A stretch of DNA of 64,000 nt from Escherichia phage vB_vPM_PD114: the sequence record MH675927.1. One strand, 5' to 3'. Under the pieces are notes generated by a model. That model had not been told where the DNA came from and searched no databases. It worked only from the letters and a program-made list of their open reading frames with translations. Position 1 is the stretch's first letter, and each line of letters opens with the position of its first letter. Below, piece after piece: positions 51,953 through 59,921 of this stretch. Both the position numbers and the translations under genes were made by a program.

Positions 51953-52028
51953 GGTTCCATAGCTCACTGACGAGAGCGCACACCTCATAAGTGTCGAGGG
52001 CAGGGATTGTAACCCTGGGGAACCACCA
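51953..52028 (+). tRNA. tRNA with CAT anticodon (Met or Ile-lysidine), atypical T-loop
   Basis: acceptor GGTTCC/GGAACC, D-arm GCTC-actgacga-GAGC, anticodon loop CTCATAA, 3' ACCA; T-loop ATTGTAA non-canonical, 7:66 mismatch. Confidence 0.45.
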
Positions 52029-52059
52029 TTTAAAAGGAGATGCTATGCATCTCCTATAT

Positions 52060-52145
52060 GCAAGTGTGGTGGAATTGGTGATACACATTGTGCTTAAAAC
52101 GCAACGCTTAAATGATTGAGGGTTCGAATCCCTCCACTTGCACCA
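52060..52145 (+). tRNA. tRNA-Leu (TAA)
   Basis: 7-bp acceptor GCAAGTG/CACTTGC, anticodon loop CTTAAAA, long variable arm, T-arm GAGGGTTCGAATCCCTC, encoded CCA. Confidence 0.7.
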
Positions 52146-52147
52146 AC

Positions 52148-52253
52148 GCCTAGTAGGGTATTTGGTAATTCCGAGGCCATCAAAGCCTGAAAAATATGTT
52201 AGACCGCTTTGTCTAACTAAATACGAAATATGGTTCGATTCCATAACTAGGCT
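52148..52253 (+). ncRNA. atypical 106-nt tRNA-like RNA (possible TCA anticodon hairpin, long extra arm)
   Basis: perfect 7-bp acceptor GCCTAGT/ACTAGGC and canonical T-arm TATGGTTCGATTCCATA but about 30 nt too long; 7-bp extra hairpin gttagac-cgcttt-gtctaac; fold not computed. Confidence 0.3.
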
Positions 52254-52285
52254 TCAATTTAAATAATAATTTTAGTAAAAATATC

Positions 52286-52314
52286 TTGACATTCACTTAG
52301 TTTTTTGTTATAGT
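52286..52314 (+). promoter_or_regulatory. sigma70-like promoter (TTGACA-N17-TATAGT)
   Basis: about 12 nt upstream of tRNA-like gene at 52326. Confidence 0.5.
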
Positions 52315-52325
52315 TACTGTGAAAA

Positions 52326-52407
52326 CGGGGTGTATCTCACCTGACTTCTAATCAGGCGTTAACCGAGTAATTGGAGTATGCAGGTTCGAATCCTGTCACC
52401 CCGACCA
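52326..52407 (+). ncRNA. atypical tRNA-like RNA with TCT (Arg-type) anticodon hairpin, no canonical D-arm
   Basis: 7/7 acceptor CGGGGTG/CACCCCG, T-arm GCAGGTTCGAATCCTGT, ACCA end; anticodon-like hairpin cctga-CTTCTAA-tcagg begins at position 15. Confidence 0.35.
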
Positions 52408-52425
52408 AAAAGTTTTAAAAACTAC

Positions 52426-52454
52426 TTGACAAGCAAGATAGTTTTATGTTAGAT
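52426..52454 (+). promoter_or_regulatory. sigma70-like promoter (TTGACA-N17-TTAGAT)
   Basis: upstream of tRNA-Ser at 52471. Confidence 0.5.
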
Positions 52455-52470
52455 TTAAAGTATGATAACG

Positions 52471-52560
52471 GGAAGGTAGGGCGCAGCGGTGCGCAACCAG
52501 GTTTGAACCCTGGCCCATTGTAGCGATACGGTGATGGTTCGACTCCATTATCTTCCTCCA
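52471..52560 (+). tRNA. tRNA-Ser (TGA)
   Basis: acceptor GGAAGGT/ATCTTCC (one GU), D-stem GCGC, anticodon stem CCAGG/CCTGG loop TTTGAAC, long variable arm, T-arm, CCA; anchored to ORF track at 52531. Confidence 0.65.
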
Positions 52561-52578
52561 AATTCAACTAGGAGCTTT

Positions 52579-52731
52579 ATGAATTATAAAACTATTGGAC
52601 AGGTTGTTACCGGAGTTAAGATTGTAGATAATAAAGTTGTTTATGAGTATTCTAATCTTCAACAATCTGAAGATGGTAAAAATATTCGTATGGTAAAAGC
52701 AGAACAAAAAGATTCCGGTTGTTTTGAATAA
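52579..52731 (+). CDS. hypothetical protein (50 aa)
   Basis: track ORF 52531..52731 overlaps tRNA-Ser; trimmed to ATG after taggagc. Confidence 0.45.
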   Translation: MNYKTIGQVVTGVKIVDNKVVYEYSNLQQSEDGKNIRMVKAEQKDSGCFE

Positions 52732-52739
52732 TTAAGAAC

Positions 52740-52825
52740 GGTAGATTGGTGAAATGGTAGCCACAACAGTTTGCTAAACTGTCGTCGGAAACGGCGTGTA
52801 GGTTCAAGTCCTACATCTACCGCCA
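52740..52825 (+). tRNA. tRNA-Ser (GCT)
   Basis: perfect acceptor GGTAGAT/ATCTACC, anticodon stem ACAGT/ACTGT loop TTGCTAA, long variable arm, T-arm GTAGGTTCAAGTCCTAC, CCA. Confidence 0.7.
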
Positions 52826-52845
52826 AATTTATGCGAGGAGGATGT

Positions 52846-53226
52846 ATGCCAAGCAATGATTATATGCGGGAATACATGAAAACTCGGTGGCAGAAGCGAA
52901 GAGCTTCCGCAATCCTCCAGCTTGGAGGTAAATGTGTTAATTGTGGGTCTGTAGATGACTTGGAATTTGATCATAAAGATTCAAGCGAGAAGAAGTTTTA
53001 TATTAGTCGAATGAGTTCATGCTCTGAGGCTAAATGGCAGGAAGAACTTGCCAAATGTCAACTTTTGTGCCATGACTGTCACATGAAGAAGACAAGAATA
53101 TCCCAAGACATGGGAAACAGAATTAGAACAACGGTGTGTGTTTGCGGGGCAGTATTTTATAGTACAAAGGCTTATGCTGGACATACACGGTGGTGTAAAG
53201 AGTATGCATCGTTAGCCAAGCGGTAA
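52846..53226 (+). CDS. HNH endonuclease (free-standing, inside tRNA cluster)
   Basis: CVNCGS..DHKD..CHDCH HNH motifs; track ORF 52771..53226 begins inside tRNA-Ser, trimmed to ATG after gaggagg; 3' end overlaps tRNA-Lys by about 21 nt. Confidence 0.65.
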   Translation: MPSNDYMREYMKTRWQKRRASAILQLGGKCVNCGSVDDLEFDHKDSSEKKFYISRMSSCSEAKWQEELAKCQLLCHDCHMKKTRISQDMGNRIRTTVCVCGAVFYSTKAYAGHTRWCKEYASLAKR

Positions 53227-53280
53227 GGCACTTGACTTTTAATCAAGGGAGCGAAGGTTCGAATCCTTCACGATGTACCA
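53206..53280 (+). tRNA. tRNA-Lys (TTT)
   Basis: acceptor GCATCGT/ACGATGT (G1-U72), anticodon stem CTTGA/TCAAG loop CTTTTAA, T-arm GAAGGTTCGAATCCTTC, CCA. Confidence 0.7.
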
Positions 53281-53285
53281 AACAC

Positions 53286-53372
53286 GTAGGTATCGCATAG
53301 CGGCAATTGCTGGAGACTGTAAATCTCCTGCCCTTCGGGGCTTCGTTGGTTCGAGTCCAACTACCTGCACCA
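53286..53372 (+). tRNA. tRNA-Tyr (GTA)
   Basis: acceptor GTAGGTA/TACCTGC, anticodon stem GGAGA/TCTCC loop CTGTAAA, long variable arm, T-arm, CCA. Confidence 0.7.
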
Positions 53373-53379
53373 AATTAAA

Positions 53380-53463
53380 GATGGATTGGCCTAGTGGTTG
53401 GGCGACGGACTGTTAATCCGTGAACGAAAGTTCTAGCAAGGTTCAAATCCTTGATCCATCGCC
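53380..53463 (+). tRNA. type II (long variable arm) tRNA with GTT anticodon (Asn-decoding)
   Basis: perfect acceptor GATGGAT/ATCCATC, anticodon stem ACGGA/TCCGT loop CTGTTAA, extra arm gaac-gaaa-gttc, T-arm CAAGGTTCAAATCCTTG, CCA. Confidence 0.5.
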
Positions 53464-53471
53464 AGAATTAT

Positions 53472-53548
53472 GGACTTGTAGAGTTAAGGTAAACCCTCAG
53501 TCGCAAAGAGGCTTCTGGAATTGCAGGTATCGAATCCTGCCGAGTCCA
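53472..53548 (+). ncRNA. degenerate tRNA-like element
   Basis: acceptor GGACTTG/CGAGTCC and 8-nt T-loop GCAGG-TATCGAAT-CCTGC but no canonical 5-7-5 anticodon arm; no CCA. Confidence 0.3.
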
Positions 53549-53554
53549 ATTATT

Positions 53555-53629
53555 GCTCCTATCGTATAACGGCTATTACGGTTGCCTTGTAAGCAACTTA
53601 TCAGGGTTCGAGTCCTTGTGGGAGCACCA
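53555..53629 (+). tRNA. tRNA-Thr (TGT)
   Basis: acceptor GCTCCTA/TGGGAGC, D-arm GTA..TAC, anticodon stem GTTGC/GCAAC loop CTTGTAA, T-arm, CCA. Confidence 0.7.
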
Positions 53630-53652
53630 ATTTTAACTCTAAAGGAGTGTAT

Positions 53653-53976
53653 GTGACAGAAAAAGAGTTAGAGAAATATTTTAATATCAATGTTTTCGAT
53701 GGTTTTGATGATATTGAAGATGTTGAAAGATATTATGAAGTAGAGTTAGATAAGGATAACATTGTAATTCTTTCTGCCACTTATGATTGTGCATATTATG
53801 AAGGTGAATCTCACGTTTATTTTTATGATATGAAAACATCTTTGTTTTATGAAGTACACGCATATCATTGTTCTTGTTATGGTTTAGAAGGTCAGTGGGA
53901 ACCTGAAGAAATAGGTGATTTGAGCTTTACGGTTGCATATCTAAACAGACGTGGTGCATCTACTATTTTAAAATAA
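53653..53976 (+). CDS. hypothetical protein
   Basis: track ORF 53647..53976; probable start at second GTG after aaaggag. Confidence 0.5.
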   Translation: MTEKELEKYFNINVFDGFDDIEDVERYYEVELDKDNIVILSATYDCAYYEGESHVYFYDMKTSLFYEVHAYHCSCYGLEGQWEPEEIGDLSFTVAYLNRRGASTILK

Positions 53977-53990
53977 ATATTAAAAGCCTC

Positions 53991-54020
53991 TTGACAAAGG
54001 GGCTAATAATATGTTAGAGT
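53991..54020 (+). promoter_or_regulatory. sigma70-like promoter (TTGACA-N17-TTAGAG)
   Basis: upstream of tRNA-Gly. Confidence 0.5.
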
Positions 54021-54031
54021 AATATTGTTAA

Positions 54032-54106
54032 GCGGGTATAGTGTTAATGGTAGCATATGAGGTTTCCACCCTCCAGGTGCAGGTTCAAGTCCTGTTACTC
54101 GCTCCA
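54032..54106 (+). tRNA. tRNA-Gly (TCC)
   Basis: acceptor GCGGGTA/TACTCGC (one GU), anticodon loop TTTCCAC, T-arm GCAGGTTCAAGTCCTGT, CCA. Confidence 0.7.
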
Positions 54107-54537
54107 AGATTATTTAAATGGAATCGCTAGAGAAAATTTCTCTTTTCGCTCATGGTTTTCTCCTTCAAACTCTAGCGGTTCTTTTTAAGTGATTTTTTAG
54201 TTTATTGGAGATTCACTGCCTTAGTGTGAGCTAAAATCGAGGAGCCATCGAACTGTCTGATTAATGATTTGCGAATCATTATAGTTTTAAGACCCCGGCA
54301 GTTTTATGGTGTACCTCTTGAATGTGAATGATGACGGGTTTATGGTTATCCTGGTCGTTAAATATCCAAAAACCTATGTTCCCCTTGAGGGCTTGCGCAG
54401 GCAATGCCAATAAGTCCTGCATTTTCATTTAAAAGAGAATTTATAATGGAAAAAGATGAACTTAAGTATGCTAAGCCTCTGGCTTCTGCTGCACGAAAAG
54501 CAGTTCGTCACTTTGTGGTAACACTGAAGTAATTTAT
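54107..54537 (+). other. structured noncoding spacer inside tRNA cluster (candidate small RNAs)
   Basis: 8-bp stem cgctagag/ctctagcg then U-tract (approx 54125-54190); hairpin taatgatt-tgcg-aatcatta (approx 54259-54278); gcagg..cctgc hairpin plus U-tract (approx 54393-54430); no convincing ORF. Confidence 0.35.
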
Positions 54538-54612
54538 TGGAGATTAGCCTAGTGGGAAGGCAACGGCCTTTGAAGTCGTGATGACTAGGTTCGATTCCTA
54601 GATCTCCAGCCA
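54538..54612 (+). tRNA. tRNA-Gln (TTG)
   Basis: perfect acceptor TGGAGAT/ATCTCCA, D-stem GCC/GGC, anticodon loop CTTTGAA, T-arm CTAGGTTCGATTCCTAG, CCA. Confidence 0.7.
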
Positions 54613-54619
54613 AGATTTA

Positions 54620-54695
54620 CAGTGCGTAGCGCAGTTGGTAGCGTGGGAGCCTTGGACGCTTCAGGTCGCAGGTTCGAGTCCTGCCGCACTGACCA
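54620..54695 (+). tRNA. tRNA-Pro (TGG)
   Basis: perfect acceptor CAGTGCG/CGCACTG, D-arm GCGC-AGTTGGTA-GCGT, anticodon loop CTTGGAC, T-arm GCAGGTTCGAGTCCTGC, CCA. Confidence 0.75.
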
Positions 54696-54700
54696 AATTT

Positions 54701-54775
54701 GCAGAGATAGCTGAGACGGATTAGTGCTACCCTGAAAAGGTAGAAAGGATGGATCGTTACCATCTCTCTGCACCA
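54701..54775 (+). tRNA. tRNA-Phe (GAA)
   Basis: perfect acceptor GCAGAGA/TCTCTGC, anticodon stem CTACC/GGTAG loop CTGAAAA, T-arm GATGGATCGTTACCATC, CCA. Confidence 0.7.
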
Positions 54776-54852
54776 AATAACACCATCCAAGGAGTAGACT
54801 TGGTTAACTGTCAATAGCACATTGAGGCTTCTTACAGTGGTGTACTTATTAT

Positions 54853-54937
54853 GGCTAAGTGGTGGAATGGTATACACGATACGCTTAGAACGTATTGCCC
54901 CAAGGGATTGTGAGTTCGAGTCTCACCTTAGCTACCA
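54853..54937 (+). tRNA. tRNA-Leu (TAG)
   Basis: acceptor GGCTAAG/CTTAGCT (G1-U72), anticodon stem ATACG/CGTAT loop CTTAGAA, long variable arm, T-arm GTGAGTTCGAGTCTCAC, CCA. Confidence 0.7.
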
Positions 54938-54952
54938 AATTATTACAGATTG

Positions 54953-55031
54953 CGCGGGATAGAGGAGTCTGGTCGTCCTCGCCAGTTTCATATGCTGGAG
55001 ATCATCGGTTCAAATCCGATTCCCGCCTCCA
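54953..55031 (+). tRNA. tRNA-Met (CAT), possible initiator type
   Basis: acceptor CGCGGGA/TCCCGCC with 1:72 mismatch, D-stem GAGG/CCTC, anticodon loop TTCATAT, T-arm ATCGGTTCAAATCCGAT, CCA. Confidence 0.55.
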
Positions 55032-55089
55032 CTAAATACCTCCCTTCTGGTGTAATGATTAAATTACATTGACACCTCAAGGAACTCAT

Positions 55090-55172
55090 AGCTGGGTAGA
55101 TTTAAAAGAGTATGGTACTCAATATGGCTCCAAACCATAGATCAAGGGGTTCGATTCCTCACCTTGCTGCCA
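55090..55172 (+). ncRNA. tRNA-Trp-like (CCA anticodon) with irregular 5' region
   Basis: anticodon arm TATGG-CTCCAAA-CCATA, D-like arm GAG-TATGGTA-CTC, T-loop TTCGATT, 3' CCTTGCT-G-CCA; only 6/7 acceptor candidate, separated from D-arm by about 11 nt. Confidence 0.35.
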
Positions 55173-55177
55173 ATTAT

Positions 55178-55253
55178 TGTGGTATCGTACAGATGGTTAG
55201 TACACTCGACCGATAATCGAGAAACAACGGTTCGACTCCGTTTACCACGACCA
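55178..55253 (+). tRNA. tRNA-Ile (GAT)
   Basis: 76 nt; acceptor TGTGGTA/TACCACG (U1-G72), D-stem GTAC, anticodon stem CTCGA/TCGAG loop CCGATAA, T-arm AACGGTTCGACTCCGTT, CCA. Confidence 0.6.
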
Positions 55254-56095: not shown

Positions 56096-56527
56096 ATGAT
56101 GATACTGATTATGTTAATAAACCTACTGAAGAATAAATGGGTTAGGTATTTTGTTCTTATTATAGCATTGTTTGGTGGTTTGTATATTGGTTTAAACAAA
56201 TTACACGATGATGTGTATGCACAAGGCTACAACGCAGGTGTTGCTAAACAAGAACAAATATTACAACAAAACCAAATTAAAGCAAAACAGCAATTCGATA
56301 TTTTACAAGCAAAAGCAGATTCAGAAAGATCTAAATTGAATGAAAAAATTCATTCATTAACGAAAGAAAAAAATGATCTTCTTATACAATTGGATAAGAA
56401 GAGTAATAACATAACACAAGAGAGAATAGATTATGCGAAAACATCTTCTGGCGCTATGTCTTGTTTTAGCCCTAATGATGACGGGTTGCGCATCATCAAC
56501 AACAGCTTCCCAGCCTCTACTGATTGA
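56096..56527 (+). CDS. Rz-like inner-membrane spanin
   Basis: N-terminal transmembrane helix then Gln/Lys-rich coiled coil; contains embedded Rz1-like ORF. Confidence 0.55.
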   Translation: MMILIMLINLLKNKWVRYFVLIIALFGGLYIGLNKLHDDVYAQGYNAGVAKQEQILQQNQIKAKQQFDILQAKADSERSKLNEKIHSLTKEKNDLLIQLDKKSNNITQERIDYAKTSSGAMSCFSPNDDGLRIINNSFPASTD

Positions 56528-56762
56528 GCAGTGTAAAGCTGTAGCAACACAACAAATAAAAGCCCCTGATTCTGTTAGTATGGAGAAACCATCTACCCCT
56601 GTTTTATATACTCCTAATCAAATAAAGAAAGGAGTTACAAGATCAGAGGTAGTTGATAATCAAACTTTAAACAACGCTTTGTGGGAAAAAGATAGGATAA
56701 AACTTATCAGTTTGCAAAACTATATTAAAACATTACAAAGCGAAGGAATAATTTCTAATTAG
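56433..56762 (+). CDS. Rz1-like outer-membrane lipoprotein spanin
   Basis: signal peptide with lipobox LMMTGC; starts inside Rz in another frame and extends beyond it. Confidence 0.55.
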   Translation: MRKHLLALCLVLALMMTGCASSTTASQPLLIEQCKAVATQQIKAPDSVSMEKPSTPVLYTPNQIKKGVTRSEVVDNQTLNNALWEKDRIKLISLQNYIKTLQSEGIISN

Positions 56763-56770
56763 GAGGAGAT

Positions 56771-57999
56771 GTGGCAAGGAAACCTGTCAAACAATCTTTT
56801 GAAAATGTAGATATTGAAGTTAAAGCCCAACCTGGCAAACAAACACTAGCTATGGATCTTATGCCTGAAGTAATGATTTATGGTGGTGCGGCAGGTTGTG
56901 TTTCAGCAGAAACAGAATACTTAACAAGAGACGGTTGGAAACAAATAAGTGAATATGATGGTGAGGATATTTATCAATACAATCCAAGAAACAAACGTCT
57001 TGAATTAGTTACACCATCTTTTGTAGAATATGATGCTAAAGATAATCTGTATTGTATTACAAACGGAGTAGGTGTCTTCCAAGAATTAAGTATGGAACAT
57101 CGCTTTGTTTTCTACAAGAAGAAAAAATCCAAAAAACATTTTGAAATTCTTGTTGGGGATCTTATTGCACTACAGCAAGCAGGACACCCATTACGAGGAT
57201 ATATTGAAAATCCTTTTGGTAAACGTGTTCCGTTTAACATTCAAGGTAAACCTAGCACATATCTAAAAATTCATGAGGTAATGACAAGTGATGATAAGAA
57301 ATATTGCTTTGAAACTCCAAGCAGTTATGTCGTGTTTAGACGTGGCGATCACATCTTCGTTACTGGGAATAGCGGCAAAAGCCGTCTGCTACTTCTAAAA
57401 GCACTTAAATACGCATATAAAGATCCACTGTTTGGTGGTATTCTTTTCCGTAAAAATACAACAGCTTTACGTAAATCTGGTGGTTTGTTTACTGAAGCTA
57501 AAAAACTTTATCTACCATTAAAGCCTCACGTAAGAGAACAGGCTATGGAGATGGAGTTCAGAGCCACAAAAGGTGGCACACTTAAATTTGACCATCTTGA
57601 AAATGATAACGTAACTGCTGAAACTAACCATCAAGGTACACAGTATTCGATGGTAGGGTTTGACGAACTTACACATTTTACACAATATGAAATGCTGTAT
57701 CTGTTAGGGCGTATGCGTTCTGAATCAGAAACATCTTTTATGCTGTGTACTTGTAACCCTGATGCTGACAGTTGGGTGTTGAAATGGGTACTTCCTTATT
57801 TGGATGAAGCTGGTTATCCACGGGAAGATATGTGTGGCAAACAGCTATACTTTCTTATTGTGCAAGATGAACCAGTATTTGCTGAAACAGCAGAAGAGTT
57901 GAAAGAAAAGTATCCTGAAAACTGTTTTATGCAAAACCCAAACACAGGTGAAACAGTGGTTATTGAACCACAAACATTTGTGTTCATTGGTGGAACCAT
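56771..57999 (+). CDS. terL: terminase large subunit, exon 1 (ATPase domain, contains intein)
   Basis: Walker A split as GGAAG | intein | SGKS; track ORF runs to stop at 58009 but inferred 5' splice site follows T at 57999. Confidence 0.65.
56897..57370 (+). other. mini-intein (158 aa) inserted in TerL Walker A loop
   Basis: begins CVSAETEYLTRDG (intein block A-like), internal T..H block (ITNGVGVF..MEHRFV), ends ..DHIFVTGN followed by Ser; excision gives GGAAGSGKS. Confidence 0.65.
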
Positions 58000-58064
58000 T
58001 AATCAATAGTGGCTTTGTGCAGCGATGCACATCGAATAACTTTGTTAATTGCTGGGAAGTCTAT

Positions 58065-58093
58065 TGACAAATAGATAATCAGCAGCTATAATC
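58065..58093 (+). promoter_or_regulatory. sigma70-like promoter inside intron (TTGACA-N17-TATAAT)
   Basis: consensus hexamers about 30 nt upstream of homing endonuclease ATG. Confidence 0.55.
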
Positions 58094-58124
58094 ACTTCTC
58101 CAAAAATATTAGTAGGAGAGTAAA

Positions 58125-58805
58125 ATGAAAAACTTAGATTTCATCGGATACCCGCATTATTGCGCCACATACGATGGTCGTATTTTTAGTTTATACACCC
58201 AAAAATTCCTAAGCGAAAATAAGATGCTTGGAGATTACAAGGGAGTAACCATTTGTGAAAATGGTAACAGGATAGAAGAATTACAGCACAGGTTGATAGC
58301 AAAAGCATTTGTGCCTAACCCTGAAAATAAGCCTTTTGTTAATCACAAAGATGGCAACAAACTTAATAATTGTGCAGACAATCTTGAGTGGACAACAGAA
58401 CAAGAGAATACTCTTCACGCTATGTCCACAGGGTTAAGACGAACAGAAGTCATAAATGACTACAGACCTATTCCAGACACTGTTGCTGTGGAAATTTGCA
58501 AACTGTTAGAGCAAGGATCACGTAACAAAGATATCTGTCAGATGTATAATGTGGCACAATCTGTTGTTAGTGATATAAAAGCTGGCAGAACATATAAAGA
58601 CATTTCACAAGACTTTAACTTTAGAAAAATACCCTCTTCCAACAGAATAAGTGAAGATAAAGTCTTAGGGATTTGTGAAAAGCTGCAAGAAAATATTCTA
58701 TCAATAAATAAAATAGCTAAAAAATACGGCGTAAGTTTTAATGTAGTTAAGAGTATTAAAGATAGGAAAACCTATACGTACTTATCTAATAACTACAATT
58801 GGTGA
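58125..58805 (+). CDS. HNH homing endonuclease (intron-encoded)
   Basis: HNH block HRLIAKAFVPNPENKPFVNHKDGNKLNNCADNLEW; SD taggagag; located inside the terL intron. Confidence 0.75.
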   Translation: MKNLDFIGYPHYCATYDGRIFSLYTQKFLSENKMLGDYKGVTICENGNRIEELQHRLIAKAFVPNPENKPFVNHKDGNKLNNCADNLEWTTEQENTLHAMSTGLRRTEVINDYRPIPDTVAVEICKLLEQGSRNKDICQMYNVAQSVVSDIKAGRTYKDISQDFNFRKIPSSNRISEDKVLGICEKLQENILSINKIAKKYGVSFNVVKSIKDRKTYTYLSNNYNW

Positions 58806-58992
58806 TGTAGTTCAACGACTATCCCGAAAGGGAGTAGGGCAGAAGCAAATGCTGCTCGAAAAGCAAAGCATCTCTTAGGAGATGATGATATAGTCTATTC
58901 TGCACAGTGATGTGCAGCAGTTCATAAGAGAACGTGGAGTAGAGTTGCGACTACTCCAGAATAAAAAGATTTGATAACCCTGAACTAATAAG

Positions 58993-59824
58993 ACTTAACC
59001 CTAAATACTTAGCTTCTTTGAAGGCTCAAACCGCCGTTAAGAGAGCACAGCTTTTAGATGGTTGTTGGTTTGCTCGTGCGCAAGAAGAGAGTTTCTTTAA
59101 CAGAGAATGGTTACACGTTATCAAGTTTAAAGATTTACCAAACAATCTTAAATATATGCGAGCGTGGGATAAAGCAGTATCTGTTCCAACAGAATCTTAT
59201 CGTTATCCTGACTACACAACATCTGTTAAAATGGCTAAAGACTCTGATGGAAATTATTACATTTTTGGTGATTATGATTATGATGCTCACGATGAAGGTA
59301 GTAAAATTTTTGGTAGATTCAGAAGACTACCAGGTGATCGAGATAATTTAATTCTAAACCAATGTAAGATTGATGGAGATGAAGTTACAGTTGTATTGCC
59401 AAAAGATCCTTCTGGTGCTGGTTTGATTGAATATACAGAATCAGCTAAAAAACTAATTGCTGAAGGGTTTGTTGTTAAACCAGACGCTATGCCTGGTAAC
59501 AAGAAAAAGTTACAACGCTTTATGCCATTTAGTAGTGCTTGTCAAAATGGTTTTGTTTATATTGTAGAAGAATCTTTCCCTAATAAAGAAACTCTTGATC
59601 ATTTCTATAAAGAGATGGAGTCGTTTAATGGAGAAAGATCTACAGCAACATTAAAAGATGATATTCCAGATGCTGCTGCATCTTGCTTTAATACTTTGTC
59701 AAAAGAACAGATGTTTAAAGCAGTAGCAATACCTTCTGCAACAAATGCATTAACAGGGTATGGTAAGATGGGTGGAAGATCAAGAAACTCTTTATCTTCT
59801 CCATATAGTATCAGAGGAAGATAA
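58993..59824 (+). CDS. terL: terminase large subunit, exon 2 (nuclease domain)
   Basis: open frame from 58994 continuous with track ORF 59018..59824 (alternative start); acidic DDIPDAAAS motif; joins exon 1 in frame via junction codon ATA. Confidence 0.55.
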
Positions 59825-59827
59825 ATC

Positions 59828-59857
59828 TTGACAAAACTATTTAAAATATGTTAAAGT
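59828..59857 (+). promoter_or_regulatory. sigma70-like promoter (TTGACA-N18-TAAAGT)
   Basis: upstream of portal candidate. Confidence 0.4.
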
Positions 59858-59921
59858 AGCATTATATGTCTACCCCTTCAATGGGGTAGAGTCATTTGTC
59901 CAGCATTAGCGGAGGTTCTGA

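Follow-up and report, generated by a model that had tools for sequence, protein, structure and literature searches.

The window analyzed here, 64,000 nucleotides (nt) of Escherichia phage vB_vPM_PD114 (MH675927.1), contains a gene for the large terminase subunit (TerL) that is interrupted by an insert at positions 58000-58968. On the basis of sequence comparisons we read this insert, with a probability of about 0.93, as a mobile group I intron of subgroup IA2, of the type found in the td and nrdB genes of phage T4, that carries an HNH endonuclease gene similar to that of I-HmuI. The element has boundaries that can be read from its relatives, a conserved and covarying structure, a resemblance to a known family, a sporadic distribution and co-conversion tracts. 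The comparisons support the view that TerL, an essential packaging gene, would depend on RNA splicing. A split TerL gene with a group I intron and an HNH homing endonuclease had been proposed in an initial annotation, made from the letters of the window, and this central claim agrees with the in-frame absence of the segment in relatives, the Rfam match, the covariation, the core shared with td and nrdB and the I-HmuI-like protein.

Salmonella phage UAB_1 and Escherichia phage cardinal, both members of Justusliebigvirus (Stephanstirmvirinae, the phi92-like phages), show 99.1% identity to the region over 3.2 kb, and the window comes from a phi92-like coliphage of this genus.

Intron boundaries and the predicted spliced terminase

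Sixty-six database records match the region. Eight of them contain all of it, insert included, and the remaining ones, also ~99% identical, align in two pieces and are 969 nt shorter. In the alignment with PHB05, in whose record TerL is annotated as one uninterrupted gene of 694 codons, the segment absent is exactly 58000-58968. Joining 56771-57999 to 58969-59824 gives an open reading frame (ORF) of 2085 nt, and its product and the TerL of PHB05 agree in 694 of 694 residues. The parts of the gene are the following.

56771..57999, + strand: TerL exon 1, GTG start (ORF list; colinear with the TerL of PHB05)
58000..58968, + strand: group I (IA2) intron of 969 nt (segment absent from intron-less relatives; Rfam Intron_gpI)
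58968, + strand: terminal guanosine (omega G), 3' splice site directly after it (alignment with td, nrdB and rV5; intron-less alleles)
58969..59824, + strand: TerL exon 2 (Pfam Terminase_6C, 23.0 bits; protein identical to PHB05)

Exon 1 encodes the N terminus of TerL, a Walker A motif interrupted by an intein (see below) and most of the ATPase domain. Its frame stops at 58009, as the initial annotation had it: the ORF 56771-58009 gives the N-terminal 412 residues and ends in a TAG three codons inside the insert, and its Pfam match (Terminase_6N, 42.3 bits) breaks off at profile position 155 of 215. Exon 2 encodes the end of the ATPase domain (FDNPELIRLNPKYL...) and then the RNaseH-like nuclease domain. 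The downstream frame had been described as a nuclease ORF open from about 58994 to 59824; the nuclease domain (Terminase_6C) and the end hold, and the frame is in fact open from 58943, the nearest in-frame upstream stop being the TAG at 58940-58942. The supposed position of the intron between the ATPase and nuclease domains had to be given up. In the intact TerL of PHB05, Terminase_6N extends over residues 201-458 and crosses the junction at residues 410/411, and the intron lies inside the C-terminal part of the ATPase domain, at codon 410 of TerL.

The spliced junction reads ...GGA ACC AT / A TTT GAT AAC..., that is T-I-F-D-N. The predicted ligated exons are GGAACCAT joined to ATTTGATAAC (in longer form, GGTGGAACCAT joined to ATTTGATAACCC), with the peptide ...FIGGTIFDNPELIR... 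across the junction. We retain the 5' splice site after T57999 that had been proposed, and place the 3' splice site at G58968 because excision of 58000-58968 alone restores the intron-less allele; no other boundary reproduces it. In the alignment of the 3' core, G58968 shares a column with the terminal G of td and that of nrdB in T4, at what we take to be the 3' exon boundaries of these introns, and with the inferred boundary in phage rV5 (Vequintavirus V5, NC_011041). These boundaries fit the rules for group I introns, the last exon base, U57999, pairing with G58009 and the last intron base being G58968. Splicing after U58000 and A58969 would give the same protein and was rejected because the U.G wobble and the terminal G would both be lost.

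Ribozyme core and endonuclease module

A P1-P10 model comprising P1-P6, P7, P7.1, P7.2, P8, P9, P9.1, P9.2 and P10 was drawn by hand on the window and its pairings were followed in an alignment of eight distinct sequences (the window, rV5, phiWec193, four ORF-less forms and a partial Av-05, of which the 5' two-thirds alone were used).

57996-58001 with 58007-58012, + strand: P1, 6 of 6 pairs kept in 8 of 8 sequences
58002..58006 with exon 2 58971-58975, + strand: P10 guide in the P1 loop, 82.9% of cells paired
58016..58031, + strand: P2 hairpin with GCGA tetraloop, 100% paired, 2 compensatory pairs
58040-58046 with 58862-58868, + strand: P3, 100% paired, 1 compensatory pair
58050-58055 with 58079-58084, + strand: P4, invariant, in a partial Rfam match (model positions 60-138)
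58059-58064 with 58071-58076, + strand: P5, enclosed by P4, one compensatory pair
58085-58090 with 58806-58811, + strand: P6 (hand model), its 715-nt loop holding the ORF module
58817-58821 (GACUA) with 58891-58895 (UAGUC), + strand: P7, guanosine-binding helix, invariant in 8 of 8
58822-58833, + strand: P7.1 with GAAA loop, 100% paired
58837-58857, + strand: P7.2, 100% paired, 2 compensatory pairs
58869..58884, + strand: P8 hairpin, 3 compensatory pairs
58900-58917, + strand: P9, 1 compensatory pair
58920-58933, + strand: P9.1, 2 compensatory pairs
58936-58957, + strand: P9.2, 4 compensatory pairs

The 80 pairs of this model are paired in 95.4% of cells over the eight sequences; sliding the 3' partners by 1-3 columns lowers this to 33-48%, a comparison that favours the model in that the structure was derived from the window sequence itself. 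Compensatory changes occur in 19 pairs, a number equalled in 0 of 500 shuffles and due in part to shared ancestry, the eight sequences representing about three lineages. They fall, at least one in each, in P2, P3, P5, P6 (where the three pairs closest to the stem base, 58085-87 with 58809-11, are 100% paired and include one such change), P7.2, P8, P9, P9.1, P9.2 and P10, and P1, P4 and P7 are invariant. The wobble U57999.G58009 at the 5' splice site is kept in 8 of 8 sequences, the TAG that closes the exon 1 frame (58007-58009) lies inside P1, and the compensatory change in P10 matches a synonymous TTT/TTC difference between the exons of the window and rV5. With the ORF deleted, the intron RNA folds at -85.9 kcal/mol, compared to -60.9 +/- 5.0 for shuffled sequences (z = -5.0).

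The Av-05 record (KM190144.1) ends within P9 of its TerL intron, and it starts with the reverse complement of what is apparently another TerL intron, to judge by shared core motifs. This is probably an assembly misjoin at core sequence common to both introns, and with the record misjoined inside the repeated core, Av-05 was rejected as a further lineage where the 3' half is concerned.

The strings that had been singled out as P7 are confirmed by the model, GTTCAACGACTATCCC at 58810-58825 being J6/7-P7-P7.1 and GATATAGTCT at 58887-58896 being J8/7-P7', and the P9-like hairpin CTGCACAGTGATGTGCAG at 58900-58917 is P9 itself. The P7 strands and J8/7 agree with the Rfam consensus and with the T4 td and nrdB introns. 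The RF00028 model of Rfam (Intron_gpI), with reporting by E-value, matched 58729-58917 at 45.8 bits, with E-values of 3.3e-10 in a 1.2-kb search and 1.8e-8 in the whole window, and this is the sole Intron_gpI match in the 64 kb; a separate 16-bit match to the same model at 58050-58128 (model positions 60-138, that is P4-P6) lies upstream of the ORF. The score is low because the ORF-bearing P6 loop splits the core and is not bridged by the model. The ORF-less orthologue in Vequintavirus C9 reaches 87.5 bits (threshold 50).

The assignment to subgroup IA2 is made because both P7.1 and P7.2 are present and because of the identity with the introns of T4/RB3 nrdB (encoding I-TevIII, an HNH enzyme) and T4 td (encoding I-TevI, a GIY-YIG enzyme), both IA2. 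Common to these and the window are J3/4-P4 UUAAUUGCUGG, P7 ACGACUA/GAUAUAGUCU, P7.1/P7.2, P9 CUGCA..GCAG and the context of the terminal G. The identity is with nrdB in J3/4-P4 and in P9-P9.1 GCAGCAGUUCAUAAGAGAACG (the stretch comprising the 3' strand of P9 and P9.1, GCAGCAGTTCATAAGAGAACG, is the same in both), and with td in P7-P7.1-P7.2. The description of the intron as td-like is right as to its type, but by sequence its nearest characterised T-even relative is nrdB. The three introns are also alike in that the endonuclease gene lies between a 5' part (P1-P6) and a 3' part (P7-P9) and in the logic of promoter and hairpin over the ribosome-binding site; td and nrdB differ in residing in nucleotide-metabolism genes, and td in its GIY-YIG enzyme. 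In a BLAST search the 3' core showed 72-80% identity to introns of several other phage genes, among them RB3/T4 nrdB and the DNA polymerase genes of a T7-like Yersinia phage, a Bacillus phage and Pectobacterium CB7; for the CB7 DNA polymerase intron splicing has been demonstrated by reverse-transcription PCR (RT-PCR; PMC7344957).

By analogy with established group I chemistry, catalysis would consist of guanosine-dependent self-splicing. The TerL pre-mRNA would fold into P1-P10 and a free guanosine bound in P7 would attack the phosphate after U57999, held in P1 by its wobble with G58009. The terminal G58968 would then occupy the same guanosine site and the 3' OH of exon 1 would attack after it, helped by P10 (58002-58006 with exon 58971-58975), giving a ligated message that encodes a TerL precursor of 694 aa.

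The module contained in the P6 loop consists of the ORF, its ribosome-binding site and a -10 element.

58064..58092, + strand: sigma-70 consensus promoter for the HNH gene, 12 of 12 match
58096-58101 with 58115-58120, + strand: hairpin sequestering the ribosome-binding site, dG = -5.8 kcal/mol, AGGAG in the 3' arm
58125..58805, + strand: HNH homing endonuclease gene, 226 aa, I-HmuI-like (Pfam HNH_3, PDB 1U3E)

The HNH ORF and its consensus promoter stand as first described. The protein matches Pfam HNH_3 over residues 55-96 (37.6 bits, cut-off 24.8) and also CENP-B_N/HTH, that is, helix-turn-helix DNA-binding modules. Its best solved relative is I-HmuI, the nicking enzyme of the DNA polymerase intron of Bacillus phage SPO1 (PDB 1U3E; E = 7.9e-11 over residues 5-156), in which an HNH core is likewise followed by DNA-binding helices; I-HmuI differs in its target gene, its ribozyme and its size (174 aa, versus 226 aa with extra helix-turn-helix modules in the window). 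The protein would act as an endonuclease on a target site in intron-less alleles. The stop codon (TGA 58803-58805) abuts the 3' strand of P6 (58806-58811). The promoter (TTGACA 58064-58069, a 17-nt spacer and TATAAT 58087-58092), the sole 12 of 12 match in 3.6 kb, overlaps L5/P5/P4 and the 5' strand of P6. In rV5 the equivalent place has TTGCTA-17-TATAAT and a hairpin predicted at the corresponding position, with 2 compensatory changes by our reading.

The gene would be expressed from its own sigma-70 consensus promoter, and in read-through pre-mRNA the hairpin would mask the ribosome-binding site; it could not form when transcription begins at the internal promoter, at ~58099-58102. This regulation is suggested by analogy, such a layout of promoter and hairpin being known for the intron endonucleases of T4. 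T4 endonuclease genes have T4 middle or late promoters, whereas that of the window has a host sigma-70 consensus. A search of the internal promoter for a copy of the homing site that could act like an operator, as is the case with T4 I-TevI, found none (local alignment 18, null 16.5 +/- 2.8).

ORF-less versions of the intron, 266-268 nt long, occupy the same TerL codon in Vequintavirus C9, RudolfGeigy, JEP1 and VB-EcoM-WM (one of them at 1795-2062 of the extracted locus). They have a different, short P6/P6a hairpin and no TATAAT. The HNH gene, the -10 element and the adjoining P6 strands seem to form one unit, and look like a unit that invaded a pre-existing intron.

Several points weigh against the reading of the insert as an active intron with a homing endonuclease, beyond the small number of lineages and the derivation of the structure from the window itself. 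At its gathering thresholds Rfam returned tRNAs only for the whole window and no intron, the 45.8 bits of the Intron_gpI match being below the curated threshold of 50. The HNH protein has NHKDG in place of the DHKDG of I-HmuI, with N and not D preceding the catalytic His. At -5.8 kcal/mol, the hairpin that covers the ribosome-binding site is weak.

Homing, related introns and alternative readings

The intron of the window type is confined to the 8 records mentioned. One of these carriers, nepoznato, belongs to another genus (Phapecoctavirus). Its intron is 99.5% identical to that of the window (964/969), with both ribozyme halves 100% identical, and the identity of the exons is 78.8% for exon 1 and 75.9% for exon 2. 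When spliced nepoznato is compared to the intron-less phAPEC8_ev052 over 800 nt, all 10 differences lie between -50 and -2 relative to the insertion site, with none downstream of it, and at each of the 10 positions nepoznato has the window-type base; Schickermooser, an intron-less congener, shows one extra difference from nepoznato, at -392. In nepoznato this is a one-sided upstream co-conversion tract of 50 nt from a Justusliebigvirus-type donor. Near the insertion site the window itself differs from PHB05 at -5, -2 and +1 only, all synonymous. The window bases at the three positions match the rV5-type exon (AACCAT / A), and the change at -2 improves the pairing of P1. The intron-less site is TTCATTGGTGGTACTATCTTTGATAACCC, with a PHB05-type form GGTGGTACTATCTTTGAT and a window-type form GGTGGAACCATATTTGAT. 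Sporadic occurrence, an element far better conserved than the exons around it, and co-conversion together make up the population signature of homing, and the intron shows all three. UAB_1, cardinal and nepoznato were deposited as isolates with named hosts, and a phage that is viable needs an intact TerL.

Other matching records, labelled 'UNVERIFIED: Campylobacter phage' (MG065639, MG065645, MG065656, MG065689 and others), are 98.9% identical or have the Vequintavirus intron, and look like mislabelled genomes of E. coli phages.

We envisage that in a mixed infection the HNH enzyme nicks or cuts intron-less TerL alleles, the repair of which would then copy the intron plus some upstream exon sequence into them. 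The strictly one-sided tract of 50 nt and the host-type promoter could mean that the I-HmuI-like enzyme is active early and that its cut or nick falls upstream of the insertion site. By analogy, it could then be a weapon against co-infecting intron-less relatives and not a purely selfish passenger, a role that has been demonstrated for the intron endonuclease of PhiPA3 (PMC11620839).

Introns in TerL have been described before, and the closest is the second TerL intron of rV5 with its HNH protein gp66. Its insertion codon (...G-x-T-I / F-D-N-P...) and its P1-P10 architecture are those of the window intron, and its ORF likewise follows a -10 TATAAT and lies in the P6 loop. The element is 67% identical to that of the window, the ribozyme ~70-77% (with many compensatory changes) and the HNH protein 62%. 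The differences are that rV5 belongs to another subfamily, with a TerL ~40% identical, that its intron measures 979 nt versus 969, and that its -35 element, TTGCTA, is not consensus. The TerL of rV5 has an additional, ORF-less intron upstream and no intein. The introns were published under 'Introns in terminase' (Kropinski et al. 2013, PMC3606486), and the GenBank TerL of rV5 is a three-part join, those of LL12 and of the BASEL phage RudolfGeigy being annotated likewise. The upstream intron lies at 1149-1427 of the extracted rV5 locus, scores 84.9 bits with Rfam and is in the Walker B region.

Pectobacterium phage CB7 (Certrevirus) also has an HNH-bearing group I intron in the TerL of an rV5-like myovirus (~384-1347 of the extracted locus), the splicing of which has been shown by RT-PCR (PMC7344957). 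It occupies a different site, at about residue 299 of the window TerL, in the Walker B region where intron 1 of rV5 is also inserted and where the window TerL is uninterrupted (MVGFDELTHF); a common site for the CB7 and window introns was accordingly rejected. According to PMC3606486, a group I intron in a terminase gene was first reported from the TerL of Lactobacillus phage LL-H (Mikkonen and Alatossava 1995); LL-H is an unrelated siphovirus with a Gram-positive host. No papers on introns in Justusliebigvirus were found in the searchable literature, and none relevant was found for Phapecoctavirus, judging by titles and abstracts. The intron of the window, a selfish element of a familiar sort, adds a member from another subfamily to an intron lineage that has been described before.

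Three other accounts of the region have to be weighed, the first of which concerns the end of the intron. The initial annotation had the intron span 58000-58992 and end in CTGAACTAATAAG, joining ...ACC AT to A CTT AAC... after G58992. This junction keeps the frame and comes after a G, and the T4 td intron ends in a sequence similar to CTGAACTAATAAG, namely CTGAACATAATG. It would, however, delete FDNPELIR, found in every intron-less relative (FDNP being conserved also in rV5); the relatives are 969 nt shorter and not 993, the exon 2 frame opens as early as 58943, G58968, 24 nt upstream, is the base aligned with the td and nrdB terminal G, and the P10 partner 58971-58975 must be exon. The site at 58992 was rejected on the intron-less alleles plus the td and nrdB introns and has next to no chance of being correct; CTGAACTAATAAG is exon sequence (P-E-L-I-R) in which the likeness to td arises by chance.

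It is also very improbable that no splicing takes place and that TerL is made as two polypeptides, an N-part of 412 aa and a C-part, assembling after translation, as with NrdA in Aeromonas phage Aeh1, whose gene is split by the HNH gene mobE. The separate ORFs listed in the GenBank records of UAB_1, cardinal and nepoznato would fit, and split genes that do not splice exist (Aeh1 nrdA and CB7_245, cited in PMC7344957). Yet a complete and covarying ribozyme core is found on both sides of the ORF, the break falls within the ATPase domain, read-through of exon 1 adds only NQ and a stop, and exon 2 lacks a ribosome-binding site, the earliest start available in it being TTG 59018, 17 codons past the junction. 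We give as little credit to the idea that the HNH protein is a packaging accessory, retained for stimulation of TerL, and not a homing endonuclease. HNH proteins of the HK97 gp74 type reportedly are encoded beside terminase genes (Kala et al. 2014). The HNH gene does lie within that of the terminase, and some terminases are assisted by HNH proteins (cited in PMC7344957), but it is absent from 58 of the 66 related records and so dispensable, the protein is of the I-HmuI/HNH_3 type with helix-turn-helix DNA-binding modules, and its presence coincides with co-conversion tracts and 99.5% identity across genera. A helper role may exist as an extra function; it cannot explain the absence from most relatives or the conversion tracts.

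A probable Walker A mini-intein, neighbouring genes and significance

The TerL of the window has a second interruption, at the level of the protein.

56897..57370, + strand: mini-intein of 158 aa in the Walker A motif, TerL residues 43-200

Its junctions are GGAAG / C43...TGN200 / SGKS, with the initial Cys, the final Asn and the Ser after it that are expected of an intein, and excision gives GGAAGSGKS, a motif that is uninterrupted in rV5. An exhaustive HMMER search recovered 734 homologues, mostly matching as separate N- and C-terminal stretches, in RecD-like, ResIII/DEAD and SNF2 helicases, a primase-helicase and other TerLs; a word-indexed search recovered 5 near-identical fragments only. 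In the P-loop copies examined (11 junctions in 10 host proteins) the insert lies between the glycine and (S/C/T)GK(S/T), begins CV(D/S)x(D/E)TE(F/Y) (once CLSADTEF), ends in GN and comes in short forms and in forms with a middle of ~300 residues, and excision restores GxxGxGK(S/T) at 11 of the 11 junctions read. The copy in the window has no Pfam, NCBIfam or PDB sequence match, and a homologue 81% identical to it scores 18.1 bits with Intein_splicing (cut-off 35.8). AlphaFold2, on a shallow alignment, gave a predicted local distance difference test (pLDDT) of 47, and the top Foldseek match of this model was an intein, not significant. These features point to a mini-intein of a family that targets P-loops, in which case mature TerL (~536 aa) would need both RNA splicing and protein splicing. 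An intein is not annotated in the records of PHB05, EmilieFrey, UAB_1 or nepoznato.

Taken jointly, the proposal would be that TerL needs RNA self-splicing plus the splicing of a Walker A mini-intein from a P-loop family lying below the Pfam and NCBIfam thresholds, and that the HNH enzyme is perhaps an early weapon that cuts upstream. As a whole we regard this as tentative, and rather doubtful.

The surroundings of the gene can be described briefly. Fifteen tRNA genes (Met x2, Leu x2, Ser x2, Lys, Tyr, Asn, Thr, Gly, Gln, Pro, Phe and Ile) are clustered on the + strand at 51953-55253, ~1.5 kb upstream of TerL. Immediately 5' of TerL, at 56096-56762, are two overlapping ORFs, annotated in relatives as Rz-like spanin or o-spanin, the second of which (56433-56762) has a lipoprotein-type signal (LALMMTGC). 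The gap between TerL and the portal gene (59828-59890) contains a promoter-like site (TTGACA, an 18-nt spacer and TAAAGT, with TG in front), followed by a terminator-like hairpin at 59869-59890.

The finding changes nothing in what is known of group I introns, homing endonucleases or terminases, and its main value is for annotation. In the records of UAB_1, cardinal and nepoznato TerL has been deposited as two or three ORFs and not as a joined coding sequence, under the labels 'putative terminase large subunit', 'HNH' and 'hypothetical protein' or a second 'terminase large subunit'. The correct product is join 56771..57999, 58969..59824, and this matters because phage phylogeny and the prediction of packaging strategy rely on TerL as a standard marker. 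For the biology of these phages, the locus is a clean natural record of intron homing across two genera, in which the exon tract of the donor can be read base by base, and the available material is suited to mixed-infection work on co-conversion and on interference between related therapeutic coliphages.

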